Shown: positions 17,175-42,734, numbered from the stretch's first letter. The stretch is 64,000 bases of DNA from Planctomycetota bacterium (GCA_015075515.1 JABTUE010000001.1:1013001-1077000); one strand, 5' to 3'. Translations and numbers: made by a program. Notes: generated from the letters alone by a model not told the origin.

Positions 17175-17289
17175 GGCACACTCCGTTCGGGGTCACCGCC
17201 CCTCAGTATACGAACGAGAACAGCCCGGAGTTACCCAATCGTCCCACAACCGGCGGTCTTCATGGCAAAGCAAGCTATTCTGGCCGGTC

Positions 17290-19548: not shown

Positions 19549-19578
19549 CCGCAAGCCGGTTACGGGCCGGGCACCACC

Positions 19579-20445
19579 ATGCGCGTCGGCGTTGACTTCG
19601 GCGGAACCAACATCAAGGCCGCGCTGGTCGAGGGCGCCGGCGTGCGGGCCCACGCCAGTGTTCCCACCCGCGGCGAGGCCGGGCCCGCGGCCGTTCTGGA
19701 CAACCTGGCCGCGGCCGTGCGGCAGCTTGGCGCGCGGGCAGAGGTGGTGGGCGTGGCCATTCCCGGCGAAGTGGATGACCGGGGCGTTTGTTACCGCCTG
19801 CCCAACGTGCCAGGCTTTGACGGCTACCCGCTGCGCGCGGAACTGGAGCGCCGGCTGGGCTGCCCGGTACACCTTGAAAACGACGCCACCGCCGCCGCCG
19901 TGGCCGAGCAGCGCTTTGGCTGGGGTACAAAGTACCGCAGTTTTCTGCTGGTCACGCTGGGCACGGGCATCGGCGGCGGTCTGGTGCTGGACGGCGCCGT
20001 GCGCCGGGGGCGCGGCGGTTTTGCCGGCGAAATCGGGCATGTGCTGGTGGATTCCACGCCCGGCGCCTGGCCCTGCGGTTGCGGCCTGAAGGGGTGCATG
20101 GAGGCCTATGCCGGCGCGCGCGGGCTGTTGCGCCATGACAGCGAACACGGCGGCAGCGCCACGGAGGTGCGCCAGATCGTGGACGCCGGGGGGCAGCGGG
20201 CGCAGAGGCTGTTTGATTTTCTGGCCCGCGCGCTGGGCGCGGGGCTGGCGCGGCTGAACAACGCGCTGGACCTGGACGCGCTGGTGTTCACCGGCGGCGT
20301 GGCGGGCAGTTTCGCCGCGATTGAGCCGCCCCTGCGTGCCCACTTTGCCGCGCACAGTTACGCGCCGCCGATGGGCGCGATCCCGATGCAGGTCAGCAAA
20401 CTGGGCGAGCACGCGGGCGTGATCGGCGCCGCGTGGCTGGGCTGA
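19579..20445 (+). CDS. ROK family sugar kinase (glucokinase-like)
   Basis: ROK motifs are DFGGTNIKAALV, LENDATAAAVAE, and GTGIGGGLVL...CGCGLKGCMEAY (zinc site). Confidence 0.85.
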   Translation: MRVGVDFGGTNIKAALVEGAGVRAHASVPTRGEAGPAAVLDNLAAAVRQLGARAEVVGVAIPGEVDDRGVCYRLPNVPGFDGYPLRAELERRLGCPVHLENDATAAAVAEQRFGWGTKYRSFLLVTLGTGIGGGLVLDGAVRRGRGGFAGEIGHVLVDSTPGAWPCGCGLKGCMEAYAGARGLLRHDSEHGGSATEVRQIVDAGGQRAQRLFDFLARALGAGLARLNNALDLDALVFTGGVAGSFAAIEPPLRAHFAAHSYAPPMGAIPMQVSKLGEHAGVIGAAWLG

Positions 20446-20472
20446 TGCCGCCGGGCAACCTACAATCCGGCC

Positions 20473-20973
20473 ATGGCCGGCAACCGCAACCACTACGAAC
20501 GCGCGTTCACCGGCTGGCTGGCCGGCCACGGCATCCAGGCCCTGGCCGTTGACGAACGCCGCCGCCCGGTGGTGGAAAGCCGCCTGCTGAAGAACTTTGA
20601 TTTTCTGGTCAACGGCGCGCAATCCGTGCTGGCGCTGGATCTCAAGGGCCGCCGGGGCACGCCCTGGATTACCGGCGACGATCTTTTTTCCGCCATGGCC
20701 TGGCGCAATCTTCTGGCCGGCCGCGTGCAGCCGGCATTTCTGTTTGCTTTCTTTTCGCCCGCCGGCCGGTTTTCCGCCCGCGTGGAAGCATTGCCCGCCA
20801 CAACGCACGGGCAGGACTGCGGCACGTACCGGTTCTGCCTGCTGTGGCTGGACGACGCCCAGCGCCTGGCGCGCCGGCGCAGCGCGAGCTGGGGTACCTA
20901 CGGCTTTGAATGGGCGGCCTTTGCCCGCGCCGTGACGCCGGCCGCGGAAGCCCTTCTGCCGCTCTATGCCTGA
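20473..20973 (+). CDS. Hypothetical protein (HYExAFE-like N-terminal motif)
   Basis: 166 aa. The N-terminus MAGNRNHYERAFTGWLAGHG resembles the conserved-hypothetical HYExAFE family. Recalled from memory, so weak. Confidence 0.45.
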   Translation: MAGNRNHYERAFTGWLAGHGIQALAVDERRRPVVESRLLKNFDFLVNGAQSVLALDLKGRRGTPWITGDDLFSAMAWRNLLAGRVQPAFLFAFFSPAGRFSARVEALPATTHGQDCGTYRFCLLWLDDAQRLARRRSASWGTYGFEWAAFARAVTPAAEALLPLYA

Positions 20974-22259
20974 ACCGGCGGCAGGGCCGCAATCGCCTCA
21001 ATTACTTCGCGGCAGCGGCGGTAGCGTTTGTCGCGTTCGCGCAGCACCAGCCGGTCAATGATGGCGCAGAACGCCTCGCTGATGTGCGGGGCTGATTCGC
21101 GCAGCGGCGGCGGGTCTTTGGTCAGGTGCGCCAGCACCACCTGTTGCAGGTTGTCGCCCGGAAACACCGGCTTGCCCGCCAGCAGGTGATAGAACGTGGC
21201 CCCCAGCGAATACAGGTCGCTGCGCGTGTCCAGGTCTTTGGCGCCGTTGGCCTGCTCGGGGCTGATGTAATGCGGCGTGCCCAGCAGGTAGCCCTCGGCG
21301 GTCTGGCCGGTGTCATCCACCAGCCGCGACAGCCCGAAGTCGCCCAGCTTGGCCACGCCGTCGCTGGTGACGTAGATGTTGCCGGGTTTGACGTCGCGGT
21401 GGATCAGCTTGTGCTGTTCCAGGTATTCCAGGGCCTGCGCGGTCTGGCTCATCAGCTTGCGGGCGCGGGCTTCGTCCAGTTTTTCGGCCGGGTTGTCCAC
21501 GTAACGGTCCAGCGGCGCGCCCTCGACCAGCTCCTGCACCATGAAATGCACGTCCTGGTACTCGCCCATGGTGTAGGTACGCACGATGTGAGCGTGCAGC
21601 AGCTTGACGCTGATTTCGTTGCTGCGCTGCAGACGCTTGAGAAAACCGTCTTTCACCGCGGCGAACGGGCTGATCACTTTAAGCGCCACGGGCTTGAGGT
21701 TGATCGGCTCCAGGGCCCGGTACACCGTGGCGGTACCGCCCTGACCCAGCTTGTCCACGATTGTGAACCCGGCGAAATCCTTGCTTACGATCTGGCCGGT
21801 TTCCTTGAAACGCGTGACCGCGCGGTCGTCTTCGTGGGCCGATTCCAGACCCTGCACCGTGGTTTCGTCCAGCTTGCGGTCGGCGGTGCCCACCTTGCGC
21901 AGCAGAATGCGCACCTTGGTGGCCAGTTCGGGGTGACGGAACGGCTTGATCAGGTATTCGTCGGCCCCGGCGTCTATGCCCTCGATGATCTCCTGTTCTT
22001 CGCCCAGCGCCGCCAGCAGGATGATTGGCGTGTGCACCAGATCGGGGTCTTCGCGCATCTTCTTGGTGGCCGCCAGTCCGTTCATGCGCGGCATCTGGAT
22101 GTCCATGAAGATCAGCGCGGGCTTGAAGCGCTTGGCCTTGGCCAGGCCGTCCTGCCCGTCCACGGCGGTGTCCACCTCAAAGCCCAGCTTGCGCAACTGG
22201 TCGGAAAGGGACGCGCGCAACTGGCTGGAGTCGTCCACCACAAGGATACGTTCGGGCAT
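20964..22259 (-). CDS. Response-regulator receiver domain fused to a Ser/Thr protein kinase
   Basis: The N-terminal REC domain has ILVVDDS...ALIFMDIQMPRMNG...PIILLAA. The C-terminal Hanks kinase has GQGGTATVYRA, ALK, HRDVKPGNIYV, DFGLS, YISPE. Confidence 0.85.
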   Translation of the reverse strand: MPERILVVDDSSQLRASLSDQLRKLGFEVDTAVDGQDGLAKAKRFKPALIFMDIQMPRMNGLAATKKMREDPDLVHTPIILLAALGEEQEIIEGIDAGADEYLIKPFRHPELATKVRILLRKVGTADRKLDETTVQGLESAHEDDRAVTRFKETGQIVSKDFAGFTIVDKLGQGGTATVYRALEPINLKPVALKVISPFAAVKDGFLKRLQRSNEISVKLLHAHIVRTYTMGEYQDVHFMVQELVEGAPLDRYVDNPAEKLDEARARKLMSQTAQALEYLEQHKLIHRDVKPGNIYVTSDGVAKLGDFGLSRLVDDTGQTAEGYLLGTPHYISPEQANGAKDLDTRSDLYSLGATFYHLLAGKPVFPGDNLQQVVLAHLTKDPPPLRESAPHISEAFCAIIDRLVLRERDKRYRRCREVIEAIAALPPVQA

Positions 22260-22430: not shown

Positions 22431-22507
22431 GCACCCGTAGCTCAATTGGATAGAGCATCTGACTACGGATCAGAAGGTTGCACGTTCGACTCGTGCCGGG
22501 TGTACCA
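22431..22507 (+). tRNA. tRNA-Arg (anticodon ACG)
   Basis: 77 nt with a cloverleaf: acceptor GCACCCG/CGGGTGT, D-stem GCTC/GAGC, anticodon stem TCTGA/TCAGA with loop CTACGGA, T-stem GCACG/CGTGC with loop TTCGACT, 3' ACCA. A terminator hairpin follows at 22513-22547. Confidence 0.85.
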
Positions 22508-22557
22508 GCCAAAAAGCCGCCTTGGAAGCTACTTCCAAGGCGGCTGACGTTTCTGGC
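22463..22557. repeat. attL-like direct repeat: tRNA-Arg 3' half from the anticodon loop plus about 50 bp downstream including the tRNA terminator hairpin; an imperfect extension continues to about 22630
   Basis: A near-identical copy (few mismatches) lies at 42547-42641. The downstream approximately 70 bp are also similar and contain GGACAAGGTT motifs. Confidence 0.75.
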
Positions 22558-22740: not shown

Positions 22741-25700
22741 TTATCGACCAACAAGCGCCATCCAACAGACCAAGTGAATGTGCTCTTCGTGCAGCACATC
22801 CAGTGGTTTGGGGCGCTCATAGGGCTGCAAGCCAAGCTCCTCGACTACTTCGGCTAGTCGTTTGGCGGCTTCTTGCGGGCTCTCCTCGTGTGACCGTATT
22901 GCTTCCTGAATAGGGCGTTGAATCTTGTGGCCGTGAGGTGCCTGCAAGCGCGCCACGAGGCTTGCCGTGTACTCGGGCGTCCAGTCGGGGGCGGCATGGC
23001 TGCGGACAATGTCGGCCGCTCTCTGCATGGACGGCGGAATTTTTGGTTGAAGGTTTGCGGGGTCGGTCAACTCATTCCACTTTGCCAGAATGTGCTGCCG
23101 AGCTATGCGCCAAGCCTCGTAGGCCTGCTGCCGTAGCGCCTCAGTCAGCGTCGTGGGGGCGTCCTCCGGGCAGCGGATGCGACGCAGGCTGGTCAACACG
23201 CGGTCATCTACCAGCGTTCCGTCAGCGGTGACGAAACGGAACAAAGGTTCCTTGCCCACGCGCGCGCAAAAGAAGAAACCAGAGGGACCCTTGGTCGCCA
23301 GGGCCGAGCCTGCGGTCCAAGGGAAGTCAAGAATCGCAGTCTTGTGCCGCGGGTTCTCCAGCGCCTTGCGGAGTTCCTGCCGGAACTCTTCGCCGCTCTC
23401 CGGCGCTTCCCGCTCTCCGCCCAGTTCAAGCAGCGAAGCGTCGCCCTTCTTGATGCGCTCTAGTTCGTCCTTCACGCCGAGCACCACGTCGCCGGTCTCG
23501 GTTCCGGGCAAAATCTCGGCCTCGACACCGACCGTTCGTGCGGCCACCTTCACCTTGTCCTGGATGCGGTCGTGCAGCCTGAGCAACCGGTCCAGTTCAT
23601 CGTCCGGCAGGAAACAGTAGATGTAGTTGTCTTTGTGCTTGCTGCCAATGCGGTCAATTCGCCCATGGCGCTGTACCAAGCGCATCGGGTTCCAAGGCAG
23701 GTCGTAGTTGATCAAATTCCGGCACTGCTGAAGGTTCATGCCCTCTGCCAGAACGTCCGTCGTAACCAGAATGTCGAACCGGTCATCGCGTTTGTCTGCC
23801 GGTGCGTCCATGGACTCAGGTGCGAAACCGAACACTGCCTCCGTACCTTCGGCACTTGACACCTTGGCGACACGCCCCCGGAAGTGCTTGAGCCTTGCGT
23901 TGGTCGCAAGCTCATTCTCCAGAAAGTCAAAGATCCAGTTCATCGTGTCCGCGAAGTAGGTGAAGATCAGAACCTTGCGGTTGTCGCGCTGCGCTTCCGG
24001 AGTGGTGCCGTCCTTGTCCGCGTGTGCGGCTATCTGCTCCAACGCCTTGACCAATGATTTGAGTTTGGGATCCTGTTCAGCCGTCACTTTCTCTACGCGC
24101 TTGTGGAAGTTGCGCAGAATGGCCAAGTCACACTCTACGGCTTCGCGAAGATCGTTGACCTTGTAGGCGCTGGAGTTCTCCAGATCGCCCTCCCGTTCAA
24201 GCTCGTCCATCGCCTCTTCCGCCTCGTCCGTGTCCGCGGAAGGCAGCTCCAGAACCGCTTCCAGGGCCTTCGTTGTCGCCACCTTGCCTTTGCCAAGCAA
24301 CTGCAGAAATGTCTCGTGGTGGCGGATCATCCTCTGCACGGTCTTGCGAAAAGCCTCGATCGACGATTCAAACCGTTTGAGCATTCCAGAGCGGACCAGA
24401 CCCACCAGAACCACCTCGCTCTGCTCGATGTCGCCGTCTTTGCGAAACGCCGATGGCTGATAGCGCGCCAGGCGCAACTCGGGCTCGCCTTCTTCGGGCA
24501 TCACCCGCCGCTCAAACTCGGCAAAGAAGCCGGGCAGGAGCGCGTCCAGCCTGTAGCCCAGTTTGTCTACATGCGGCTTGGGAAACTCGATCTGGATCTC
24601 GCTGCCGTCGGGCAAGCGGATGCGGTCGTGTGGGTAGTACTTCTTCACGAAGTGCCGCGTGCGGCGCACCACCACGCGGTCCAGCAGTTCGAACAACAGG
24701 TCGGGTGTCAGGTCGTCCGGGTCCGTGCGCGAGGCCTGCTTGAACAGATCGCGCATGCTGCGGATGCCGGCCTCGGCAAAAGCCGCATCCTGCTTGATGA
24801 AGAATTCCAGCAGGTAGTACAGGTCCCACACCGAGTTGTTGACCGGCGTGGCCGTCAGCATCACCAGCCGTTTGGGCGGGTCGCCGCGCAGCAGCTTGCG
24901 CAAGGCCTTGCTGCGGTCGGCGTCGGGGTTGCGCACGCCGTGAGCTTCGTCCACTACCACCATGGCGTAGTCTGAGGCATCTACGTCGCGCTTGCCCTGT
25001 GCAATCTCTTCGAAACTGCGCACTTCCACCCGCAGGTCGGTGCGCGCCATGAAGCGCGCCCATGAGCCGTCGCGCAAAGCCGCCGGCGCCACCAGCAGCA
25101 CGCGCTGATGCGACTGGCGGGCATCCTCGATCAGCTTGGCGGCGATGAACGACTTGCCCAGGCCCACGCTGTCGGCGATCAGCACGCCGCCGCGCTGCGC
25201 CAGAATCTTCCGGGCGCGCTCAACGCCGTCGTTCTGGAAGTTGGTCAGGTGGATGCGCGACAGGCCGCCGTGTTCTTCGTTGAGTTGCTCACCGTAGCGC
25301 TCATACAACGCGCGCATGTACACCAGCCAGGGCGAAACCGGCGCGAAACGATCTTCGTACAAGCGCGCCAGGTCAAAGTCTTCAGAGCGCTCCCACAGGT
25401 TGTCGAACCACTGGCGCGCCTTGTTGTAGGGCTCCGTGTCCTTGCGCGAGACGTTGAGTTCAAGGTTCTTGCGCAGGCCGGCGTAGGTGAAGTTGCTGGA
25501 GCCGACGAAGACGCCTTCGCCGTCGGACAAGATAAACGCCTTGGCGTGCAGAAACGGCGGGAACTTGAAGCGGCGCACGCGCAGATTGCCACCGCGTTGC
25601 AGATCTATCAGGCGCTTGACGACGCCCTCGGCCTGGGCATCGAACTCGGTCAGGTTGCGGTCCAGCCGCAAACCCTCTTCCTGCCGCTCCAGTTGCGCCG

Positions 25701-25980
25701 CAAGCTGCTTTTCGAGGGCTTTTTCGCCCTTGGGGCCGCCCAGCTTGACCGGCAACGTGCGGCCTTCAAAGGGCGGCTCGGCACCCAGCAGCAGCCGGAT
25801 GCCGGACAAACGCTCAAGCTCTTCCACCAGCAGCGAAAAGCCGCCCAGGTTGAAGTACCCCGTTGCCACGTCCAGCGACGGCGGCGTCTTGAGCTTGGCC
25901 ACGCTGCCCTGAATGGCGGCCTTGAGCGCCTCCTCCATCGTGCCGTTGTCGAGATTGTCCGCGATGTCCCGCAGCGTCAT
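22741..25980 (-). CDS. Phospholipase-D (HKD) nuclease domain fused to an SNF2-family helicase
   Basis: 1079 aa. The N-terminal HKD motif is FLHAKAFILSDGEGVFVGSSNFTYAGL. The SNF2 core has Walker A LIADSVGLGKS, DEAH box VVVDEAHGVRN, and helicase-C LVTTDVLAEGMNLQQ...QRHGRIDRIG. Confidence 0.85.
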   Translation of the reverse strand: MTLRDIADNLDNGTMEEALKAAIQGSVAKLKTPPSLDVATGYFNLGGFSLLVEELERLSGIRLLLGAEPPFEGRTLPVKLGGPKGEKALEKQLAAQLERQEEGLRLDRNLTEFDAQAEGVVKRLIDLQRGGNLRVRRFKFPPFLHAKAFILSDGEGVFVGSSNFTYAGLRKNLELNVSRKDTEPYNKARQWFDNLWERSEDFDLARLYEDRFAPVSPWLVYMRALYERYGEQLNEEHGGLSRIHLTNFQNDGVERARKILAQRGGVLIADSVGLGKSFIAAKLIEDARQSHQRVLLVAPAALRDGSWARFMARTDLRVEVRSFEEIAQGKRDVDASDYAMVVVDEAHGVRNPDADRSKALRKLLRGDPPKRLVMLTATPVNNSVWDLYYLLEFFIKQDAAFAEAGIRSMRDLFKQASRTDPDDLTPDLLFELLDRVVVRRTRHFVKKYYPHDRIRLPDGSEIQIEFPKPHVDKLGYRLDALLPGFFAEFERRVMPEEGEPELRLARYQPSAFRKDGDIEQSEVVLVGLVRSGMLKRFESSIEAFRKTVQRMIRHHETFLQLLGKGKVATTKALEAVLELPSADTDEAEEAMDELEREGDLENSSAYKVNDLREAVECDLAILRNFHKRVEKVTAEQDPKLKSLVKALEQIAAHADKDGTTPEAQRDNRKVLIFTYFADTMNWIFDFLENELATNARLKHFRGRVAKVSSAEGTEAVFGFAPESMDAPADKRDDRFDILVTTDVLAEGMNLQQCRNLINYDLPWNPMRLVQRHGRIDRIGSKHKDNYIYCFLPDDELDRLLRLHDRIQDKVKVAARTVGVEAEILPGTETGDVVLGVKDELERIKKGDASLLELGGEREAPESGEEFRQELRKALENPRHKTAILDFPWTAGSALATKGPSGFFFCARVGKEPLFRFVTADGTLVDDRVLTSLRRIRCPEDAPTTLTEALRQQAYEAWRIARQHILAKWNELTDPANLQPKIPPSMQRAADIVRSHAAPDWTPEYTASLVARLQAPHGHKIQRPIQEAIRSHEESPQEAAKRLAEVVEELGLQPYERPKPLDVLHEEHIHLVCWMALVGR

Positions 25981-26239
25981 TTACGTTCCCCTTTGACCCA
26001 GGGCCGGATGAACTGGCCTTGATGTCATTTATAGCGACCAGCGCGACATTGAATACCTTGACGCCGTTCCAGGATTGCCTTGGCGGTTTCACCAAAGTTT
26101 TGCTCATCCTGTTTCCGACACTTCGGGATGGAGGTTACGGGCAAAGATTCAACCACTGTCTGGCCCTCGTTGTGCTCCATCGGCCAATCGTGTATGTCGG
26201 CCTCAACTGCTACCATGGAACGAGGCAAAGGAGCATGCG

Positions 26240-27223
26240 GTGGCGCGCTCAGACCTGATTGTGAAACTTGTTCGTGCCGGGGTGGCACGCGATGATGAGC
26301 GCTTTCGAAGGGCGGTTGAGGCCCTGATCGTCGAGGAAGAAGCCCGGCAACACCACACGGTGGCAAAGCAGTTGGCCGAAGCCCTTTCGACGCAAGGCCC
26401 CTCCGTTGCGCAGCTCACCGCTCCCAAGCTTCCGTCAACGGGTCTGGTGTTTGAGCGAGCGCCCCGGCGAACGCTGTCGGAGCTTGTGCTGCCCAAGACT
26501 ACCCGTCAGGCCGTTCAAGAACTCGTGGAAGAGCAGCACCGGGGCGACTTGCTGCGAAACCATGGCCTTGAGCCCCGCCATCGGCTGGTGCTGGTTGGTC
26601 CGCCGGGGAACGGCAAGACGACGCTGGCTGAGGCCATCGCAGATGCACTGCTTGTGCCGCTGCTGATGGTCCGTTACGACGCCATCATCAGCAGCTTCCT
26701 TGGCGAAACCGCCGTTCGCCTGCGCCAGTTGTTCGATCAAGTGCGCACTCGCCCGTGTGTTCTGTTCTTTGACGAGTTCGACGCGCTGGGCAAAGAGCGC
26801 GGCGACGAACACGAAACCGGCGAGATTAAGCGCGTGGTCAACACCCTCCTGATGCAGATTGACGACCTGCCAAGCCATGTTGTCGTCGTCGCCGCGACCA
26901 ATCACCCTGAACTTCTGGACCGTGCCGCTTGGCGTCGCTTTCAGCTTCGCCTGGAGCTTCCGTCGCCGACACAGGCGCAACTTGCGCACTGGTTTCAGAC
27001 GCTTTCGGACCGTCTGGGCCAGCCGCTGGGGCTGGCACCGAGGACACTTGCCGCTAAACTTCCCGGCATAAGTTTCGCAGAAGCGGAAGAGTTTGCGCAG
27101 GATGTTCGCCGCCGCCAGGTGCTTGGCATCCCCGATGCCGATCTCAAGCGGATTGTGAACGATCGGCTGGCAATCTGGACAGCACGCTACATCCAGCGCT
27201 CGAAGTCCAGCACGCGGCGATAA
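26240..27223 (+). CDS. AAA+ ATPase (IetA-like)
   Basis: GTG start at 26240 sits 6 nt after AAGGAG (26228-26233). Walker A is GPPGNGKTTLAEA, Walker B is CVLFFDEFDALG, with sensor-1/arginine-finger context VAATNHPELLDRAAWRRF. The longer ORF from 26075 lacks an in-frame ATG. Confidence 0.75.
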   Translation: MARSDLIVKLVRAGVARDDERFRRAVEALIVEEEARQHHTVAKQLAEALSTQGPSVAQLTAPKLPSTGLVFERAPRRTLSELVLPKTTRQAVQELVEEQHRGDLLRNHGLEPRHRLVLVGPPGNGKTTLAEAIADALLVPLLMVRYDAIISSFLGETAVRLRQLFDQVRTRPCVLFFDEFDALGKERGDEHETGEIKRVVNTLLMQIDDLPSHVVVVAATNHPELLDRAAWRRFQLRLELPSPTQAQLAHWFQTLSDRLGQPLGLAPRTLAAKLPGISFAEAEEFAQDVRRRQVLGIPDADLKRIVNDRLAIWTARYIQRSKSSTRR

Positions 27224-27254
27224 ACAATGGCGCTAACACTGCTGTGGAGTTTCC

Positions 27255-29900
27255 ATGCCGGACGAGCGGCGTCCAGTCCTGCTGTTCCCAAGCGCTTCAA
27301 CCGTAGAGCGCAGGAAGGGAAGCGGTGGTCCATCCAGCTTTCGGTTTCCATCCAGACAACGCCAGCAGGAGCGTTTGTCTGCGACCATGGCGGCCCTGGA
27401 GCGGTCGCTGGAACAGCGAAGCATGCTCCTGTCCGATCATGCCTTGGGCGGCGAGCCCGAAGGTGTGCTGGTGCTGGAGATCGCCGGCAACCTCGACAAG
27501 TTTCATATCGCGGCCAAGGCCGCAGGCATCGAGTGGCTGGGCGAATACGACGAAACAGCCGTAGAGCCGGATGAAGATTTTGCAGTCCAACGTCAACGAC
27601 GAACCCGGCAAACCGATGGCGGATCCATTGGCGACGAAGACGAGCCTGAGGATTCCGGGAATCTCGTCCCGCGCCACGTTTATCTGACCGCCACCAACCA
27701 GCGACGACTGAGGCAGTTTCTTGCCATGTGGGAGCGCTGGCTGCGCAACCAGGACTTTGAGCGAGGCCAGAAGAAGTGGTCGCAGCTCTTCAAGCAGTTG
27801 CGCACGGTCCGGTTCTGGGATGCCGAAGACCGTTTCCGCGCCACAGGCATGCTGGAGGTCTGGCAACGGGCCGTGGATGAGGACCGCGAGCCCGAGCCCT
27901 TTGCCGTGGAACTCTGGTTCCGCGAAGACGAGGCCCAGCGCGACGCAGCCGAGCAGAAGGTTCGCGCTTTCGTCACGGCGTCCGAGGGACAGGTCATCGG
28001 CCGTCCAACGGTGATCCCTGAGATCGCCTATCACGCCCTGATCGTCAGTCTTCCGAAGCAACGAGTTGAAGCCCTGTTGCGCGACCAGGCATCTGTGGTC
28101 TTGGCCAAGTGCGACCAGGTCATGCTGATCCGTCCCACGGGCCAAGTTGTGGGAGGGCCAACGTCAGGGCCGCCGCTTCAGGGTATTCAGAAGCCTGCAT
28201 CCGAGAGCGTCCGGCAGGCAGTCCGACCCAACCCCGATTTGCCGCCGGAGATTGCCATCCTTGACGGCCTGCCGATGGGCAATCACGAGGCGCTCGACGG
28301 CCGCCTGGATATCGATGATCCTGACAACTGGGGCGCAGAGTATCCCGTTCAAGCGCGGACACACGGCACCATGGTTGCCTCGAACGTTATTCACGGAGAC
28401 CTGGGAGCAGCCGGTGCGCCGCTAACCCGCCGCATCTACATCCGCCCGATCATGCGGCCTCGGCCTGGCGGCAGCGACGAGTTCATTCCGCCCGACCTAA
28501 ACGAGATTGACCTTGTGCACGGCGCGGTCACCCGCGCCAAGCAGCGGCACCCCTCGCTCAAGGTCTTTCTGCTTGCGGTCTGCGACCCGGTGCAGGTGTT
28601 TTCCGGCAGGATCAGTCCTTGGGCACGGCTCATCGACTACCTTTCCCACAAACACAACATTCTGTTTGTCATCAGCAGCGGCAACCACACCGGCGCCCTG
28701 CACTATGATGTCGGCACGCAACAGCTTCATGATATGCCGCCCGATCAGCGCGATTTGCTGACCATGACCCATGTGCTTGATGGCGCCATTACGCGCGGCG
28801 TCATGGCGCCCGCCGATTCCATCAACGCCCTCACCGTCGGCGCGGCCAACAACGATTTATCGGATCTGGACAACACGCCGTCCGGCACACTGCTGCCGGT
28901 GACGAACAGAAGCCTCCCTGCACCATACTCCGCGCTGGGCCCCGGTTACCGGCGCGCCGTCAAGCCGGATTTTCTGACCAACGGCGGCCGCAAGCCCTAT
29001 CGGCCAATGCTCCGGAGCTCAACGCAAACGCGGCTTGAGGTGCCGGATAACCTGTCCATCTTCCCGGGCATTGTCACGGCGATTCCGCACCAATCCTTCC
29101 GCTATCGCTTCGAGGCGGGCACGACCTTGGCGGCTGCTCTGACCACACGAAGGCTTGCCCAGGCGCTGGACTATCTGCGCGATCCCCAGTTTGCGGGCCA
29201 GATTCCTGACGAGTTCCTGCCCGTTATCATCAAGGCTTTGGTCGCCCATTCCGCCCGTTGGGATGATGCCGCGCGTCAATCCATTGAAGCCGCTGTGGGC
29301 AACGGCGCAGACTGGCGAGCGCAGAAGGCTGCCGTTACGCGCATGCTGGGCTACGGCTACGTGCCGCCGGAAGGCACTTTCGATTGCGCGCAACATCGCG
29401 CCACGTGCATCGGGCTCGGAACCCTCAAAGTGGACCAAGGGCACGAGTTCCAACTTCCGCTCCCGCCCATACCCGCTGACCCAATGCAACAAATTTGGCG
29501 CAGGTTGACCGTGACCATGGCCTACCTCAGCCCCATCAAGCCGAGGGTTCAGGCATATCGGCAAGTGGTCTGCTGGGCGGATCGCGCCGTGCCGGACGAC
29601 GTAGGTTTCGACTTTAATTCAACGTCAGACGTCGAGGTGCGGGCCGCCCAGCGGGGGACGTTGCAGCATCTGGTCTTCGAGGGCAACTCCGCGCCGGTGC
29701 TTACGGACGGTGACGCCCTGCAACTGATCGTGTCGTCGCGTCCAGGCGCCTATGACGGTATCAGGGCCGACGGCGAAGTATCGACACGCTATGGCCTTGT
29801 CGTCAGCCTCGAAGTTGCCCAGAACATCAACATTTACGACGAAATCCGCGACCGCATTCGCCCGCGGGTGCAGGTCCGGAACCGTCCCCCGTCTCGGTAA
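27255..29900 (+). CDS. Subtilase (peptidase S8)-like protein with a long N-terminal extension (IetS-like); the predicted nucleophile position reads Thr
   Basis: 881 aa. The Asp block is IAILDGLP, the His block HGTMVASNV, the oxyanion-Asn block FVISSGNHTGA, and the Ser block reads GTTLAAA (GTS to GTT). A GGAG lies 5 nt upstream of the ATG. Confidence 0.7.
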   Translation: MPDERRPVLLFPSASTVERRKGSGGPSSFRFPSRQRQQERLSATMAALERSLEQRSMLLSDHALGGEPEGVLVLEIAGNLDKFHIAAKAAGIEWLGEYDETAVEPDEDFAVQRQRRTRQTDGGSIGDEDEPEDSGNLVPRHVYLTATNQRRLRQFLAMWERWLRNQDFERGQKKWSQLFKQLRTVRFWDAEDRFRATGMLEVWQRAVDEDREPEPFAVELWFREDEAQRDAAEQKVRAFVTASEGQVIGRPTVIPEIAYHALIVSLPKQRVEALLRDQASVVLAKCDQVMLIRPTGQVVGGPTSGPPLQGIQKPASESVRQAVRPNPDLPPEIAILDGLPMGNHEALDGRLDIDDPDNWGAEYPVQARTHGTMVASNVIHGDLGAAGAPLTRRIYIRPIMRPRPGGSDEFIPPDLNEIDLVHGAVTRAKQRHPSLKVFLLAVCDPVQVFSGRISPWARLIDYLSHKHNILFVISSGNHTGALHYDVGTQQLHDMPPDQRDLLTMTHVLDGAITRGVMAPADSINALTVGAANNDLSDLDNTPSGTLLPVTNRSLPAPYSALGPGYRRAVKPDFLTNGGRKPYRPMLRSSTQTRLEVPDNLSIFPGIVTAIPHQSFRYRFEAGTTLAAALTTRRLAQALDYLRDPQFAGQIPDEFLPVIIKALVAHSARWDDAARQSIEAAVGNGADWRAQKAAVTRMLGYGYVPPEGTFDCAQHRATCIGLGTLKVDQGHEFQLPLPPIPADPMQQIWRRLTVTMAYLSPIKPRVQAYRQVVCWADRAVPDDVGFDFNSTSDVEVRAAQRGTLQHLVFEGNSAPVLTDGDALQLIVSSRPGAYDGIRADGEVSTRYGLVVSLEVAQNINIYDEIRDRIRPRVQVRNRPPSR

Positions 29901-29952: not shown

Positions 29953-32900
29953 TCATGCTGGGGACTTGAGGCGGCGGTAGTGGGCCAAAACGGGGGTGAG
30001 GCGCTGCTGGTAGGGCTGGCCTTCGATTTTGCCTTCGTGGAAGGTCTCGAAGATGTGGGTCAGGTGTTCTTCCGTCAGGCCGTAGAGCAGGGCGACGGCG
30101 GCGTCGAGCTCGTGGATGTGGCCCTGTCTGGTGCGGTCATCGAGGGTTCCGCAATCCACGCCGACGGCTTGGGCCCAGCCCTGGTAACGGTCATCCACGG
30201 CGGCCAGGCGGCCGGCCAGGGCCACGACACGCTGCCACAGGGGGTGCGTGCGTTCGGGACGCGGGATGGGGAGGGCGTTGAAAATGTGGAAGTTCATGTG
30301 GATTTCGACCCAGCGGCGGGCGAACCAATCCAAAGGGACGGAGCAGAGGACGCCCAGCAGGAAAGCCTGATCCTTCTCGTCACCACGGGGCCAAACCGCG
30401 TAAGGCGCTGCGTTGACAATAACCGCTTCCGGCGGGACCAGTGCGGCAATCACGGTGCGGTTATTCGTGCGGTTCGTGACATCGCGAAAGGCGATACGCG
30501 GGTGCAGGGCCGGAAGTGTCTTTTTGTCCTTCACCCACGCCGCGGGCATCTCACTGAAGGCCGAGGCGCTGTTACGGGCCGCGCGTGCGCGCTTGTCTTG
30601 CAGGTAAGCGTAAACCTTTTTCGGGTTCGCCCAGGCGTAGTAGCTGCTTTCGCCCCGGTCGGGCTGCCAGATGTCAAAACTGCCGCCGGTGAAGACGGGG
30701 ATATGCCCCTTGGGGCGCCTTTCGACAAACTTGCCGAGCGCCGGGCCTTTCTTGACTTCGTTGGTGGCGTCCATTTCACGTTGCGGCCGCGCGCGCCAGG
30801 CCTTCTTGTCGTCCAAGTCCAGGCGCGGCGCCTTGCGCAGTTGCAGAAAGGGCTCCAGCGAATCGTCGCTGGGCAACAGCGGAAACGCCGCTGTTTCCGT
30901 CCAGGTCAGAAACTCGGCGACGGGCACGGCGGGGGGCTCGCCGGCTGTGCCGGCGCGGAAGCGCTCCAGTGAGCTGTAAGGCCCGCGAAAGCGCACGACT
31001 GTGCCCGGCGCGCGCCGCAGGACGGAAAGTGCGACGGTGTACTGCGGATGCACGTCGGGAAAGAACCAGTTGCGATTGTTCAGCAGGAACGTCAGTTCTT
31101 CCACGGCGCCGTCGGCCAAGACGGCTTTGCGGAACTCCTCACTGCCGCCGCTGCACCAGACACTGCGCGGCACGACCACGCCAAGCCGGCCTTCAGGTCG
31201 GCATAACCGCCAGAATCGCCAACAAAAGCCTTTGTAAAGGTCGGGGTCGCCCGTGCCCATACCGGGGAACGCGCCGGAAGTGAGGATGACGCGCATGGCT
31301 TCGGCTGATTCCTGTTCGGCCTCGAAGCGCTTAACCAAGTCGGGGCGTTCTCCGCGGAGCTTCTCCGCCTGCTTCTTCTGTTGGGCCGCACTCAAACCGT
31401 TCATGCCCGGTTGATAGCGCACCCAGAACTTGAGTTCCTCGATGGTGGCTTCTTCCCACGGCGGGTTGCCGAGGATCACGTCAAAGCCGGGGTTGTCGCC
31501 GAAAAACACTTCGGGGAAGGCTGCCGGGAAGTGCAGGACATGCAGGCCCTCAAGGGCCTTCAGGGCCTGTTTGTGCAGCTTGCTGCCGGGGATGGCCGCG
31601 TCGCCCTTGCCCAGCAGCAGCGACAGCTCGCCGCCCTCGACGGCCTGTTGGCAGCCTTCGTCCAGGCGCGCGGCGGTCAGCACGTCAAAGATGGCCGTGG
31701 CCGGGGCCAGCTTTTGCTGGATTTGCTCATCAAGCCGTTTCGCCTGGGCGATGTCCTGCACGCTGCTGTCCGTAAGCGCCCGCAACTTCTCAAGGTCGCC
31801 GGCCACAAGCTTGAGGTACTTTTTGAGTTCACCGGTAAAGCCGAAACCGCCATCCTTGAGCAGCTCTTCGGCTTCCGCGACGCGCTCAATGCCCGCCAGG
31901 CTGTTGCCGTGGCGCAGGGTGCGGTCCAGAAACGAAAGGGGCAGGCCGGGCACGAAGGTGTGAATCCACAGGGCCAGGCGCGACAGCTCAACGGCGGTGC
32001 GGTTGTAATCGACGCCGTAGATGCAGCGGCGGGCGATCATGCGGCGCAGAAGCTGGCTGCCGTCCACGCGGCGCTGCACGCCGACCTGGGCCAGGCCGGC
32101 TTCGGCGGCTTTGCGCAGGCTTTCCAGCTCGGCCTTGACGGCGGGCAGGGGCCGTCGCTCAAGGTAGCGTGACATGCCGGCTTCGATGAAATCCACGGCG
32201 GAGACGAGAAAGTGGCCGCTGCCCATGGCGATGTCGGAGACGCGGAAGTCAAAGAAGCGTTTGCCGGCCTCGGCTTCGGGCAGTGTGTCGAGACGCTGGA
32301 AGTGTTCTTCGAGGGCGGGGTTGAGGGCCCCGCGCAGCAGGTGGGCGACGGCGAACTCGGGTGTGTAATAGCTGCCGCTGGCCTTGCGGGCGCCGGAAGC
32401 GTTGTGCAGGTAGAAGTCGCCCTTGGCGACAATGACGGCGTCGGTTTTCTTGCTTACGGGGCGATAACGGCCCTCGGCGTCGCTTGTTAAATCTTCTTCG
32501 GCCTGGCCGAGTTCCGAGAGCAGCAGGCCTTCGTAGATGGTGCCGAACTCGCGCACGCCAATGGCGCTGAAGTCAACGGGGCCGGGGATGCCGTCGCGGG
32601 TGTCATCCACGAGCAGGGTGGAGAGTGCGGCGCGAAAGACGCTGTCGGGCAGCTCGACGCTGTCGATGACTTGGCCTTCAGGGCGGGTCTTGTCGAACAA
32701 GCCGCCGTTGTAGGCGGGGACAGACAGCGCCTTGTCGCCTTCGCGGATGGCGTGAAAGACGCGCTGGACATCTTTCCAGGTGCCGGTGCCGGCGTCCTTG
32801 TGGTAGGTGGCGTTCTTGAGGCGTTCCTCGACCAGGTCCTGGGCGAGGCCCTTGATTGACTTCTTGCGGTAAGCCTGGCTTTCGAGGTAGGGCAGCAGGT

Positions 32901-34005
32901 CTTTGTCTTCGGCGTAGGCAACAAACAGCAGGCGGAACAGCAGCACCAGCGCGGCGTCGTAGGTCTCGCGCAACTGCCCGGCGTTCATGCGCTTGAGGCC
33001 GCGGGCAGCGGCCAGGCCTTGGGCGAGTCTGGGGATGACGGCGGTGTAAATGCGGTCGCGCAGCTTGACGCGGACATCGACGGCAAAGCGTGAGGATTCA
33101 TTGAGGATGTAATCCACCGTGCCGTCGGGGCGCAGGGCCTCGGCGCTGAACAGCAGCCACAGGAAGGGCTGGTGCTGTTCTTCGATCAGGGCCAGGTTGA
33201 TCTCGGCGAAGGTTTCCGTGCGGCCTTTGCTTGCGACCGGGCGTTCGCCATCGGTGGAGTACAGGCGCAGCTTGTCGCCCTGCATGGTGACGACCCAGGG
33301 GCAGCCGTTGTCCTGGGCCTTGTTCAGGGCGTAGGCGGCGGGGCTGAGGTCGGCAAAGCGGGTTGCCGGGCGGTCCGGCATTTCGTCTTCACGAACGAGT
33401 ACGGCGACGGCCTGCTTGCGGCCGCCGGTCTTGAGCAACAGGTAGTTTTGGTTGGTTTCCTCGATTTCAAAGCCGAGGCCTTGGAGCAACTGGCGCTCGC
33501 GCAGGTTGACGACGGCAGCGGCCCTTTGGCTGGCGGGTGTGTAGTGGGCGGTGCCGCTGACGCGCTCGTGCAGGTAGTGGCTGGAAAACATGCCCTCGTT
33601 GCGCAGGCCGGGGACAGCGGAGACCATCTGGGGCAGGGCTTCACGGACGAACTTGACGGCGGCTTCGTTGTTGGGCTGATTCAGGAATTCGCGGCAGACG
33701 GTTTGGGCGCGTTCCACGGGCAGATCGAAGTAGATGGGCGGGTGGCCTGTGTTGTGGGTGATGACGGGGCCGCACAGGGTGACGTAGCTGCCGTGCAAGA
33801 AGACGGCGAGCACGGGCACGGCGCGGCCTTTCTCGCGCTCCTTCCAGCATTCGCGCACGGCGGCCTGTGTGGGGCGGCGGTTGAACTGGAAGACGGCGAC
33901 CTCGGCGGCGGATTTGTCCGTGAGGAAGTACTCGACTGGTTTGCAGCCTTCCGGCAGCTTGCCCTGGGTGAGGGGGCGAGGTTCGAGATCGTCAAGGAAT
34001 GCCAT
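29953..34005 (-). CDS. Large (1350 aa) gamma-class N6-adenine DNA methyltransferase of the Eco57I / BREX-PglX / DISARM-DrmMI type with a C-terminal target-recognition region
   Basis: Motifs are GSYYTPEFAV (motif X-like), DIAMGSGHFLV (motif I, SAM), and VILGNPPWEE (motif IV, NPPW). The N-terminal roughly 450 aa are unassigned. A GGAG lies upstream of the ATG at 34005. Confidence 0.85.
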   Translation of the reverse strand: MAFLDDLEPRPLTQGKLPEGCKPVEYFLTDKSAAEVAVFQFNRRPTQAAVRECWKEREKGRAVPVLAVFLHGSYVTLCGPVITHNTGHPPIYFDLPVERAQTVCREFLNQPNNEAAVKFVREALPQMVSAVPGLRNEGMFSSHYLHERVSGTAHYTPASQRAAAVVNLRERQLLQGLGFEIEETNQNYLLLKTGGRKQAVAVLVREDEMPDRPATRFADLSPAAYALNKAQDNGCPWVVTMQGDKLRLYSTDGERPVASKGRTETFAEINLALIEEQHQPFLWLLFSAEALRPDGTVDYILNESSRFAVDVRVKLRDRIYTAVIPRLAQGLAAARGLKRMNAGQLRETYDAALVLLFRLLFVAYAEDKDLLPYLESQAYRKKSIKGLAQDLVEERLKNATYHKDAGTGTWKDVQRVFHAIREGDKALSVPAYNGGLFDKTRPEGQVIDSVELPDSVFRAALSTLLVDDTRDGIPGPVDFSAIGVREFGTIYEGLLLSELGQAEEDLTSDAEGRYRPVSKKTDAVIVAKGDFYLHNASGARKASGSYYTPEFAVAHLLRGALNPALEEHFQRLDTLPEAEAGKRFFDFRVSDIAMGSGHFLVSAVDFIEAGMSRYLERRPLPAVKAELESLRKAAEAGLAQVGVQRRVDGSQLLRRMIARRCIYGVDYNRTAVELSRLALWIHTFVPGLPLSFLDRTLRHGNSLAGIERVAEAEELLKDGGFGFTGELKKYLKLVAGDLEKLRALTDSSVQDIAQAKRLDEQIQQKLAPATAIFDVLTAARLDEGCQQAVEGGELSLLLGKGDAAIPGSKLHKQALKALEGLHVLHFPAAFPEVFFGDNPGFDVILGNPPWEEATIEELKFWVRYQPGMNGLSAAQQKKQAEKLRGERPDLVKRFEAEQESAEAMRVILTSGAFPGMGTGDPDLYKGFCWRFWRLCRPEGRLGVVVPRSVWCSGGSEEFRKAVLADGAVEELTFLLNNRNWFFPDVHPQYTVALSVLRRAPGTVVRFRGPYSSLERFRAGTAGEPPAVPVAEFLTWTETAAFPLLPSDDSLEPFLQLRKAPRLDLDDKKAWRARPQREMDATNEVKKGPALGKFVERRPKGHIPVFTGGSFDIWQPDRGESSYYAWANPKKVYAYLQDKRARAARNSASAFSEMPAAWVKDKKTLPALHPRIAFRDVTNRTNNRTVIAALVPPEAVIVNAAPYAVWPRGDEKDQAFLLGVLCSVPLDWFARRWVEIHMNFHIFNALPIPRPERTHPLWQRVVALAGRLAAVDDRYQGWAQAVGVDCGTLDDRTRQGHIHELDAAVALLYGLTEEHLTHIFETFHEGKIEGQPYQQRLTPVLAHYRRLKSPA

Positions 34006-34255: not shown

Positions 34256-34726
34256 TCAGGCCTTGTGGGACTTCAGGGAGCCTTCGGAGGGGGTCTGGCC
34301 TTTCTTGCCCCAGTAGCCAAGCACCTTGTCCAGCAGGAGCTTCAGGCGTTCGCCCCGGAATGACGCCTTGGCCTTGGCGTCTTTGGGGTGCGGGCGCGGG
34401 TAGATGAACTTGGCGTCCACGACGGTCAGCAAGCCCACGTGCAGGTAGGTCGGATACTTGATGATGTCGGCTTCGCCCAGCTTGATGTATTCGGGCGTGG
34501 GGACTTCCTTGCCGCTGGCGTGCGGGAAGCGCGAAAGCGGGCAGAGTGCCCAGCCGTCGTTGCGTTGCTCAACAACCATCAACAGGTGGCCGGTGTCCTG
34601 ACAGCCCTGCGGAATGTTGCCGTCTTTGCAGAGTTGCTCGCCCGTGCAGTCCATCGTCGCCAGCACGGCGTCGTTGTACGCCTTGTCAGGCTTAACGCGA
34701 ACCACCATGCCCGGCTCAATGGACAT
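34256..34726 (-). CDS. Hypothetical protein (island cargo)
   Basis: 156 aa with non-repetitive composition and several Cys (CTGEQLCKDGNIPQGCQD). No recognised domain. Confidence 0.5.
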   Translation of the reverse strand: MSIEPGMVVRVKPDKAYNDAVLATMDCTGEQLCKDGNIPQGCQDTGHLLMVVEQRNDGWALCPLSRFPHASGKEVPTPEYIKLGEADIIKYPTYLHVGLLTVVDAKFIYPRPHPKDAKAKASFRGERLKLLLDKVLGYWGKKGQTPSEGSLKSHKA

Positions 34727-34734
34727 TCACGTTC

Positions 34735-35361
34735 CTACCGGCCTTTGGACGGATTGGCCGCCAGTTCGTTGATCAGCGTGTTTTCCAGCTTCTCAAGACC
34801 GTCGGCCAGGCGCGCCATCGTGCCGGGCACCGGCTCCGGCGCGCCGTGTTCAAGGCGGCTGCGAAGGTCCGAAATCTTCTTGCGCGCTTCGCCGATGGCC
34901 GGCATGGCGTCGCCAAGGGCTTTCATCATGTCAGCGATCAGCGCATCAAACGACGTGTTCACGACCGTTTGCGTTCCCGACTTGGCGTTCTTGGTGCTGG
35001 CGTGGCCAAGGTCCGTGACTGCCTTCCACAGGCCGGCCCACTCCAGGACGTGCGGTCGGGCAATGTTGGCCATGTAGTCGGCCAAGCGCTGATCTACGAA
35101 CGCAGCATCAGCCTTCATTGCTTCGTGCAGGTTCTTGAAGCCGTATGCCGCCACGCCCCGCATGGTGGCGACCAGCGCCAGCAGGAACCAGCCGAACTCG
35201 TTGAAAGTCAGCGCAACGACGTACTGCCCGACTTCTTCGTCTTTCAGTTCGGGCATGAACAGCTTGGGGAAGGGCTTGGGCTTACCTTGCAAGGCCGCTG
35301 CAAGCTCTGCCTGCGCGTGCTTCTTGGCGGTTGGAACGTCAAAGCCAGCTAGACCGGGCAT
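34735..35361 (-). CDS. Hypothetical protein (island cargo)
   Basis: 208 aa, largely alpha-helical. No recognised domain. Confidence 0.5.
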   Translation of the reverse strand: MPGLAGFDVPTAKKHAQAELAAALQGKPKPFPKLFMPELKDEEVGQYVVALTFNEFGWFLLALVATMRGVAAYGFKNLHEAMKADAAFVDQRLADYMANIARPHVLEWAGLWKAVTDLGHASTKNAKSGTQTVVNTSFDALIADMMKALGDAMPAIGEARKKISDLRSRLEHGAPEPVPGTMARLADGLEKLENTLINELAANPSKGR

Positions 35362-35584
35362 TGGCCCCTCCGGCAGGGCGAATTGCTATATCCTGCACAA
35401 GCAACGCGCGCAAGGTTCAGCGGCGCGGGGTAAGTATCGGCAACCTGCGGGCCGAACTTTACACTTTTGATGTTTCGCCTAGCGGTCACTCAGAAACATC
35501 ATGGCGTCGGCATCGGCTGATTGCCAGCCCCAAGCCCATACCCATCAACAGCCGACGGACACGCTTTGTTCCCCGTGCGCCGGG

Positions 35585-35899
35585 TCAGTCGGTGAGCACT
35601 TGCCCCACGCCGTCGGTGGTCACGTCAGCGAAGGGGTCGGGGCTTTCCGGCAGCAGGTACTTGGACAGCCAGGCGCGCGCGGTCGCGTCGCCTTCGCGGG
35701 CCTGTTCGATGGCCTTGTCGATGATGGCGGCCCAGTCGGCTTCGCTGACGCTGGCGTCCATGATCCGCAGGCGCGAATACTGGACACGGCGCACGCTGCG
35801 CGGCCGGCCGCCGGGGTTGCCGGTTTGTCCGGGCTTCCAGCTTGTGCTTGTCTTGGTTCCCATGGTCATCCTGCCTGTTCTTTGCCTGCTGTCAGGCAA
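35585..35899 (-). CDS. Phage-like small protein with a GNPGGRP motif (DUF5681-like)
   Basis: The sequence WKPGQTGNPGGRPRS matches the motif of a phage-associated family recalled from memory. The start is probably an internal ATG near 35869 or 35863. Confidence 0.45.
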   Translation of the reverse strand: MPDSRQRTGRMTMGTKTSTSWKPGQTGNPGGRPRSVRRVQYSRLRIMDASVSEADWAAIIDKAIEQAREGDATARAWLSKYLLPESPDPFADVTTDGVGQVLTD

Positions 35900-36429
35900 A
35901 CTTCCGGGTGTTCGGCTTTCAGGCGTTCCGCAAAGGCGCTTGCGCTTACCGGCCCGCCGTCTGCCAGCGCGCGGGCGAACGCTTGCCCCTGCTCCGGCGT
36001 CAAGGCTTCCGGGTTCAAGCCGCGCACCCTTGCCATGGCTTCCAGCAGGTCTTGCAAGGCGTCCAGAATGGGCGCTTGCTGTTCGGGCGAAAGCGTAGAC
36101 CAGTCAAAGTCCGGCGCGCCCAGGCGCACTTTGCGGCAGTGTTCAATCAGCCGATCACACCACGCGCGGGTTTCAGCGCTGCTTTCGCTCCAACGGCCGC
36201 GCCACAGCTTGTCCAGGCCGTCGCCCCAATCCGCCAGAAAGTCGATGTGCAGCTTCATGCGTTCGACCAACTCGCGCTGGCGGGTGAAGCCGGCCCACAG
36301 ATTTTGCACGTCCACGGCTGGCGCGTGCTTGGCACACCACGCTGCCGCGCGTTGGTCGCCCGCCATGGCGCGGGCCTGCTGGCGGGCGCACAGGTCAAGC
36401 CAATCATCGGGGGCAAGCGTTTGGGTCAT
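35866..36429 (-). CDS. Hypothetical protein (island)
   Basis: Only the C-terminal 187 aa of the 375-aa ORF look protein-like (MTQTLAPDDWLDLCARQQ...). ATGA overlaps the upstream gene at 36426-36429. The N-terminal part of the long ORF is Arg/Pro-rich junk. Confidence 0.45.
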   Translation of the reverse strand: MTQTLAPDDWLDLCARQQARAMAGDQRAAAWCAKHAPAVDVQNLWAGFTRQRELVERMKLHIDFLADWGDGLDKLWRGRWSESSAETRAWCDRLIEHCRKVRLGAPDFDWSTLSPEQQAPILDALQDLLEAMARVRGLNPEALTPEQGQAFARALADGGPVSASAFAERLKAEHPEVCLTAGKEQAG

Positions 36430-42383: not shown

Positions 42384-42409
42384 GCAGTACTCCCGTGGGG
42401 GACAAGAAT

Positions 42410-42439: not shown

Positions 42440-42546
42440 ATTTGGCCCTATCCGGCACCGGATGGCCATTACAAAACAGGCCCAAATCCGCATAGGGAGC
42501 AACTTTGCGCAACTTGGCACTTTTCGGCACTAAATCCGTGGACCTA

Positions 42547-42641
42547 CTACGGATCAGAAGGTTGCACGTTCGACTCGTGCCGGGTGTACCAGCCACAAAG
42601 CCGCCTTGGGAGCCAATCCCAAGGCGGCTGACGTTTCCGGC
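42547..42641. repeat. attR-like direct repeat (partial tRNA-Arg 3' half plus downstream hairpin); an imperfect extension continues to about 42720
   Basis: It matches 22463-22557 with a few mismatches. There is no tRNA 5' half upstream. Confidence 0.75.
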
Positions 42642-42734
42642 TGGCACCCTGAAAAACCCCAAACGGACAAGGTTACGGACAAGCTCTGCGTTATTCCGGC
42701 GCCGGCTGCCCCGGCGCGTGCTTGCGGGCGGGGG

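Follow-up and report, generated by a model that had tools for sequence, protein, structure and literature searches.

The founding IetAS pair, composed of the toxin IetS and the antitoxin IetA, was reportedly described by Yamamoto in 2009 from Agrobacterium pTiC58, and the antiphage IetAS is said to go back to Gao et al. in 2020. IetAS was first described as a plasmid-stability pair, in which a serine protease is the toxin (IetS) and an ATPase is the antitoxin (IetA) (PMC13069673). Phage defence by IetAS needs protease activity, and ietA mutants could not be cloned (PMC13069673). SGI1 carries a homologous and functional toxin-antitoxin pair (PMC5006074), for a Bacillus IetAS, whose mode of action is abortive infection, the trigger is the SPbeta protein YosG (bioRxiv 10.1101/2022.08.27.505566; Stokar-Avihail et al.), and an E. 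coli variant, ietHAS, requires a SNF2 helicase (PMC13069673; Liu et al., NAR 2026). Here we describe an ietAS pair of a Planctomycetota bacterium, located at positions 26,240 to 29,900 of a stretch of 64,000 nucleotides (nt) (GCA_015075515.1, JABTUE010000001.1:1013001-1077000), which is called the window and is numbered from its first letter. The pair belongs to a divergent IetAS subfamily, and the nucleophile position of its subtilase reads Thr instead of Ser, a change that is shared by one small clade.

The two genes lie on the plus strand, 31 base pairs (bp) apart, and encode proteins of 327 and 881 amino acids (aa):

26240..27223, plus strand: ietA, GTG start, 327 aa, classical-clade AAA ATPase
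27255..29900, plus strand: ietS, 881 aa plus stop codon, subtilase
26227..26232, plus strand: Shine-Dalgarno AAGGAG, read from the sequence, 7 nt before the GTG of ietA

A preliminary description, made from the window alone, had reported this two-gene cassette, its 31 bp gap and the 881-aa second protein, and all of its coordinates and motif strings were confirmed. The ietAS match that it had put forward was borne out by full-length PADLOC profiles of both proteins and by distant homology to the pTiC58 pair. IetA matched PDLC04232 (E 5e-146, residues 1-322 to profile positions 1-325 of 330) and IetS matched PDLC04233 (E 4e-251, residues 1-875 to profile positions 1-851 of 855). The pTiC58 pair is annotated on NC_003065 as 'ATP-binding protein' (97873-98859) and 'S8 family peptidase' (98863-101373), and the identity was 38% over 254 aa for IetA (E 4e-51) and 23% over 582 aa for IetS (E 2e-13), the latter in the catalytic and C-terminal domains only. 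Gene order and protein sizes are alike (328 and 836 aa on pTiC58, with the genes 3 bp apart), whereas the N-terminal 330 residues of IetS are unalignable, the nucleophile is Ser in pTiC58 and Thr624 here, and the pTiC58 pair is plasmid-borne while the window copy is chromosomal and sits on an integrative island. The co-conservation of ATPase and protease held as well, as the gene directly preceding ietS was ietA in 42 of 43 related loci, and the one exception ends before any upstream DNA (the gene-neighbourhood comparison drew on 44 loci), and every member of the Thr clade has an IetA of 327-331 aa directly upstream.

With the antiphage IetAS (NF042959/NF042956) the window pair shares the two-domain logic, but its nucleophile is Thr and its scores fall far below the NCBIfam equivalog cut-offs, with 237 versus 510 bits for IteA (NF042959) and 58 versus 900 bits for IteS (NF042956). 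The IetA core matched NF042959 at E 3e-70, and the match of IetS to NF042956 covered residues 416-678 only. By these profile comparisons, the window pair is a real IetAS-family module of a divergent subfamily and not an equivalog of the phage-tested prototype. The IetS subfamily comprises 806 clusters (50% identity) at E<1e-30 among 1.84 billion representatives, and it is present on 96 PLSDB plasmids, mostly rhizobial. An identical protein in NCBI is annotated as an S8 family peptidase of 837 aa, which begins 44 codons downstream and omits 27255-27386. That start is probably too short and the longer 881-aa open reading frame (ORF) probably correct, because the first 12 residues (MPDERRPVLLFP) are kept throughout the Thr clade and a GGAG resembling a ribosome-binding site lies upstream of 27255. 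Neither a signal peptide nor a transmembrane segment was found in IetA or IetS.

The active site of IetS was placed with a family alignment of 262 sequences, made up of the window sequence, 120 hits of a word search and another 141 representatives:

28263..28265, plus strand: Asp337, codon GAC, catalytic acid in motif ILDG, invariant in 262 of 262
28362..28364, plus strand: His370, codon CAC, catalytic base in motif HGTMVAS, invariant in 262 of 262, aligned with subtilisin His64
28683..28685, plus strand: Asn477, codon AAC, oxyanion-hole Asn in motif SSGNHTG, invariant in 262 of 262, aligned with subtilisin Asn155
29124..29126, plus strand: Thr624, codon ACC, nucleophile position in motif GTTLAAA, equivalent to subtilisin Ser221

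Position 624 is Ser in 255 of the 262 sequences and Thr in seven. The Asp, His and Asn blocks, the Ser block reading GTTLAAA and the Thr at the nucleophile position were all found where the preliminary description had located them. It had also considered that the true catalytic Ser might lie elsewhere, but the Pfam Peptidase_S8 alignment (IetS residues 333-684, covering positions 6-288 of the 288 in the profile) puts the nucleophile at T624; in the profile alignment no alternative Ser was present inside the aligned GT[ST] motif block and no other Ser was conserved. Where IetAS is defined by a catalytic Ser, the window protein has Thr624 at the aligned position. The hhalign comparison with subtilisin BPN' aligned only the His-to-Asn part (H370 with His64, FLLAVCD with INMSLGG and SSGN with AAGN). 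The GTSnA block of the family sub-profile aligned to G219-T220-S221-M-A of BPN', and the Ser of 'GETSAATAL' in pTiC58 IetS aligned with T624. A sequence search of the PDB with IetS alone gave no match, and a search with the family profile gave two weak matches only (E 0.04). A weak HMMER alignment to SubHal, which set GTSMA opposite PGQxVAxP, was rejected, as this segment is without Ser, and the GT[ST] motif is near-invariant and aligns to S221 of BPN'. Nor is Thr624 an error, given that seven loci assembled independently of one another all have Thr at this position and encode it by three different codons.

The seven Thr sequences, which are 54-100% identical, include that of the window, which P0001 matches exactly, and P0002-P0006, which share 54-74% identity with it; other sampled family members are at most 41% identical to them. 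They were assigned to one clade because no other sampled sequence exceeds 41% identity. An eighth assembly, the Planctomycetota metagenome-assembled genome (MAG) FR_29, was found by a GTDB species scan and encodes an IetS that is 76% identical and contains GTTLAAA (locus L008). Two of the Thr-clade assemblies are named Planctomycetota. The Thr nucleophile noticed earlier is therefore present in the window, but it is confined to this one small clade and is not a property of the whole subfamily. The clade amounts to 6 clusters among 5.8 billion and to a single 50% cluster among the 1.84 billion representatives. No further Thr members were found in a metagenome scan, whose 35 loci were all Ser-type, or in a viral contig scan. 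The Ser-type majority (PDLC04232/PDLC04233) resembles the Thr clade in full-length architecture, in the invariant D/H/N residues, in the prodomain-like N-terminal part and in the C-terminal beta domain; it differs in reading GTSNA in 255 sampled members, whereas the Thr clade reads GTT[LF]A and carries M374V, L377N, N439L and S441A.

At the nucleophile position the window has the codon ACC, two loci have ACT and the others ACA, and Ser-type relatives with available DNA use AGC or AGT in 21 of 21 cases. The simplest account would be that AGC became ACC by a single G-to-C change and that the codon then drifted synonymously and never reverted. Since three synonymous codons are in use and none has reverted to AGY, which is one step away, Thr has been kept by purifying selection. 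For each of the three parts of IetS (N-terminal, S8 and C-terminal), the ratio of nonsynonymous to synonymous substitution (dN/dS), estimated pairwise by NG86, was roughly 0.1, with a range of about 0.07-0.23. The clade is itself divergent, with a mean identity to other family members that ranks near the 1st percentile, and it carries 12-15 changes at 110 family-conserved columns, versus a median of 3. Of these 110 columns, 88 keep the family residue in all six distinct clade sequences, while another 11 have lost it in every one of them; at 8 of those 11 a single residue is fixed. Because the changed columns are mostly fixed to a single new residue, the pattern is that of a switch that was then held, and not of decay. 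The clade-specific substitutions listed here comprise the fixed columns and those obtained at the 80% conservation threshold. M374V lies four residues past the catalytic His and corresponds to subtilisin V68, L377N is a fixed clade-specific change near the active site, N439L and S441A fall in the block aligned with subtilisin N123-M-S125-L-G, and N625L/F adjoins the nucleophile and corresponds to subtilisin M222. At the 80% threshold, clade-specific changes were enriched in the five active-site motif blocks (odds ratio 3.9, p 0.009).

The AlphaFold2 (AF2) model of IetS (pLDDT 90.7, pTM 0.92) and the alignments divide the protein as follows:

residues 1-325, 27255..28229, plus strand: N-terminal region, helix 34-61 followed by ferredoxin-like alpha/beta modules
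residues 216-294: prodomain-like last N-terminal module, beta-alpha-beta-beta-alpha-beta, ending in the conserved R293-P-x-G-Q297
residues 330-690, 28242..29324, plus strand: S8 catalytic domain
residues 700-881, 29352..29897, plus strand: C-terminal all-beta domain, from the AF2 secondary structure

The long region of about 300 aa that had been pointed out ahead of the S8 domain is real, and its predicted structure consists of ferredoxin-like, prodomain-like modules; the best fold matches of the N-terminal 325 residues were subtilase prodomains. The best structural matches of IetS were PCSK9, the pro-form of Tk-SP, CspB and CspC/CspA, which likewise have an attached prodomain-like module ahead of the catalytic domain. 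These are secreted or spore proteins that either have Ser or have lost several triad residues. Among subtilases and pseudoenzymes that retain the prodomain, we know of none that is paired with an AAA ATPase and of none with an Asp-His-Thr triad. IetS also gave long structural alignments to KP-43 and Tk-SP, in keeping with its C-terminal beta domain, as both of these proteins carry C-terminal beta domains. IetS would be a subtilase of the cytoplasm in which a prodomain-like module has been retained.

The motif R293-P-x-G-Q297 (28131-28145) comes directly after the last strand of the prodomain-like module and is near-invariant across the subfamily, with Q297 invariant, and it is a candidate pseudo-substrate or self-cleavage segment. 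It is conceivable that Thr624 acts only once, cutting the protein at the end of the prodomain-like module near R293-P-x-G-Q297 and leaving a non-enzymatic product similar to PCSK9. We regard this as quite improbable, since the Ser-type majority shares both the module and the motif, so that autoprocessing is not tied to Thr, and since the linker 301-313 is of low confidence in the models.

IetA belongs to Pfam AAA (E 3e-33), and its motifs, in residues of the protein, are:

120-127: Walker A, GPPGNGKT
153-156: pore loop, FLGE
176-181: Walker B, FFDEFD
219-222: sensor-1, ATNH
231-234: WRRF

All five motif sets of the classical AAA (PF00004) clade are present, and across 42 IetA orthologues none of them varies (Walker A, Walker B, sensor-1, the WRRF arginines and the pore loop, which reads [YF]LGE). 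The Ar-Leu-Gly pore loop is a mark of substrate-threading machines among classical AAA proteins, such as FtsH, Vps4 and the proteasomal ATPases. On this motif content IetA is an intact classical AAA ATPase, and its pairwise dN/dS within the Thr clade was 0.03-0.09, about 0.05. The Thr-clade IetA proteins also have fixed changes of their own. S201N and S202T (window 26840-26845) occur in the helix after Walker B at otherwise conserved positions, and R34E, L117V, S128T and E147D are further fixed changes; they could reflect co-adaptation with the altered IetS.

For the working of the pair, the account to which we give somewhat less than an even chance, and which we nevertheless prefer, is that of a protease-toxin/ATPase-antitoxin module in which IetS still works as an Asp-His-Thr protease with a pocket that accommodates the methyl group. 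IetS would be self-occluded in a zymogen-like state through its prodomain-like module, and IetA, whose motifs are given above, would use ATP to restrain or remodel it in the role of antitoxin. A phage-derived trigger would then free the protease, cellular or phage proteins would be cut, and the infection would be aborted. Thr624 would still be the nucleophile, its methyl group fitting into a remodelled pocket, and such an enzyme would probably be slower or more restricted than its Ser relatives. A little more tentatively, IetS may be a natural subtilase that hydrolyses peptide bonds with an internal Thr, enabled by M374V, L377N, N439L, S441A and N625L/F. Continued chemistry is favoured because Asp, His, Asn and Thr are all retained and because IetA is under strong constraint, which is not proof.

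The nearest precedent is trypsin S195T, which, according to the passage of PMC3835919 citing Baird 2006, became a working Thr protease only once the adjacent C42-C58 disulfide was removed. The engineered threonine trypsin attributed to Baird, Wright and Craik (2006) resembles the IetS case in having a Ser-to-Thr change in a classical triad that is eased by altering residues which crowd the methyl group; it differs in being man-made, in the S1 fold and of reduced activity, whereas the change in the window is natural, lies in the S8 fold and is known from sequence.

Several observations weigh against continued proteolysis by Thr624. The functional data on IetAS all come from relatives at 23-38% identity, and the equivalog cut-offs are missed widely. 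Buller and Townsend are said to have argued in 2013 that a classical triad normally loses its activity when Ser is replaced by Thr, and that Thr nucleophiles occurring in nature are N-terminal. The Thr clade is small, with seven loci, and dS is saturated (>1), so that dN/dS is rough though far below 1. The active-site enrichment becomes marginal at the 90% threshold (odds ratio 3.2, p 0.095), and its count includes the nucleophile that defined the clade, which makes it suggestive only. In L008 (8001-10627), a frameshift close to codon 330, shortly before the catalytic Asp, breaks ietS in two. Lastly, the conservation of D, H and N would fit a binding-only pseudoenzyme equally well.

Such a pseudoenzyme is an alternative that we consider unlikely but far from negligible. 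The Ser-to-Thr change would have killed hydrolysis, IetS would serve as a binding sensor or scaffold whose cleft grips a target, and the damage would be done by IetA as an unfoldase or by another partner. Retention of D337, H370, N477 and the G-T motif speaks against it, given that pseudoenzymes such as CspC lose additional catalytic residues. The nucleophile has also stayed Thr through synonymous drift, without wandering to Ala or Gly, and IetA, the known neutraliser of a protease toxin, shows the strongest constraint of the locus.

The frameshift of L008 and the great rarity of the clade would also suit a decaying remnant, in which Thr has inactivated the toxin and the module is heading for loss. 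This seems scarcely credible to us, as 6 of 7 Thr-clade loci have both ORFs intact although the proteins diverge by up to 45%, the dN/dS values are low (IetS about 0.1, IetA about 0.05), and the changed sites are fixed and not scattered. The frameshift itself may be an assembly error in the MAG, or it may mark a real pseudogene. An active module with Asp-His-Thr chemistry, restrained by IetA, remains the reading that we prefer.

The preferred reading also takes IetAS to be complete in itself, which has to be set against its neighbours in the window:

22431-22507: tRNA-Arg(ACG), its 3' part overlapped by the left direct repeat
22462..22557, plus strand: left copy of a 96-nt direct repeat, overlapping the 3' part of tRNA-Arg(ACG)
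22741..25980, minus strand: PLD(HKD)-SNF2 helicase flanking IetAS, 1079 aa, divergent from ietA, with Pfam PLDc_2, SNF2-rel_dom and Helicase_C and a PADLOC 'HKD+Snf2' match (E 9e-58)
29953..34005, minus strand: type IIG-like Eco57I-family methyltransferase flanking IetAS, 1350 aa, convergent with ietS, PADLOC REase_MTase_IIG (E 3e-283)
41013-42662, minus strand: tyrosine integrase ORF, abutting the right repeat copy
42546..42641, plus strand: right copy of the direct repeat, 94% identical to the left one, 20,084 bp apart from it, abutting the integrase ORF

The GC content of the window is 0.61-0.73, and the island interior is lower in GC than its flanks. From the direct repeats at tRNA-Arg, the abutting tyrosine integrase and the lower inside GC, the segment 22431-42662 is a 20-kb integrative island at tRNA-Arg. 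IetAS occupies the space between methyltransferase and helicase and is inverted relative to both, which bears out the nesting in opposite orientation between two minus-strand genes that had been described, for elsewhere the methyltransferase and helicase genes overlap as an operon and the slot holds other cargo. The PLD-SNF2 helicase family is large. In loci L049 and L050 (49-50% identical), the gene of a methyltransferase of the Eco57I type (~1340 aa) and that of the helicase lie on one strand and share 4 bp, and on this gene order the methyltransferase forms a widespread operonic pair with the PLD-SNF2 helicase (~1080 aa). In two near islands the slot is filled differently: in L047 (helicase 76% and methyltransferase 76% identical) it contains two small genes, and in L045 (83% and 78%) it contains two small genes and a GmrSD_N gene. 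Judged from these islands, the junction between methyltransferase and helicase is a variable cargo slot, and IetAS is one of its occupants. Since the slot contents differ in orthologous islands and the conserved partner of the helicase is the methyltransferase, the comparison argues that IetAS is an autonomous, nested cargo.

The adjoining helicase raises the alternative that IetAS is not autonomous and acts together with the SNF2 helicase, and perhaps with the methyltransferase, in the manner of ietHAS. The E. coli ietAS variant does need a SNF2, DrmD-like helicase (PMC13069673), and a SNF2 helicase adjoins IetAS in 3 of 6 distinct Thr-clade loci (the window, L003 and L001). In L003, which holds the closest IetS relative, the start of the same helicase gene is present and is divergent from ietA. 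The IetAS of L001 (8974-18938), which at 54% identity is the most divergent of the Thr clade, stands beside a SNF2 helicase (1061 aa) and a DUF1156 methyltransferase (992 aa), which are convergent and downstream of IetAS and of types unrelated to the pair in the window; an AbiEi_2 gene is found farther along. We nevertheless hold joint action to be very improbable. The window helicase is on the opposite strand and, where it overlaps a gene, its partner is the methyltransferase (L049, L050), other cargo takes the same slot in L045 and L047, and a related helicase or methyltransferase was absent from 35 of 35 Ser-type loci. The published ietH has its Walker A at K65 (PMC13069673), so that there would be no N-terminal PLD domain, unlike in the window helicase. 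In its likeness to ietHAS, the window has a SNF2 helicase next to IetAS, but this helicase is not in the same operon, is fused to PLD and forms an operon with a type IIG methyltransferase, and the ietHAS reading was given low weight for these reasons. A reading of the flanks as DISARM class 1 was rejected as well, because DrmD/DrmMI-like matches were obtained but DrmA and DrmB were not found among the neighbouring ORFs.

Elsewhere on the island, ORFs of 156, 208, 375 and 952 aa (34256-39640) had no Pfam or PADLOC match, but the one of 208 aa weakly resembles (33%) the small genes in the slot of L045 and L047. Just outside the island, beside the tRNA gene, a 431-aa protein (20964-22259, minus strand) fuses the receiver domain of a response regulator to a Ser/Thr protein kinase, and a 1177-aa ORF farther out (17275-20808, minus strand) had no Pfam or PADLOC match. 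A promoter scan returned 0 promoters, and terminator-like sites were no more frequent than expected from shuffled sequence.

The module itself is, on its profile matches, a further member of the known IetAS system. Literature searches on IetAS and on threonine nucleophiles with subtilisin returned nothing on the Thr clade, and to our knowledge the clade and its co-substitutions are undescribed. IetAS is widespread, and recent work describes only a protease toxin and an ATPase antitoxin (PMC13069673). The PDLC04233-type subfamily, with a prodomain-like module fused to the protease and an unfoldase-type pore-loop ATPase beside it, offers a concrete model of how the toxin may be restrained. The Thr clade may be regarded as a natural experiment on why classical triads use Ser or Cys rather than Thr, and the alignment gives both the change and the candidate compensations. 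If the enzyme were dead, the clade would be a clean case of a defence toxin turned pseudoenzyme under a constrained ATPase partner, and it would be informative on the role of IetA. If Thr624 is catalytic, IetS would be an exception found in nature to the rule that Thr nucleophiles work only at a free N-terminus, and the alignment would show which substitutions the conversion takes.

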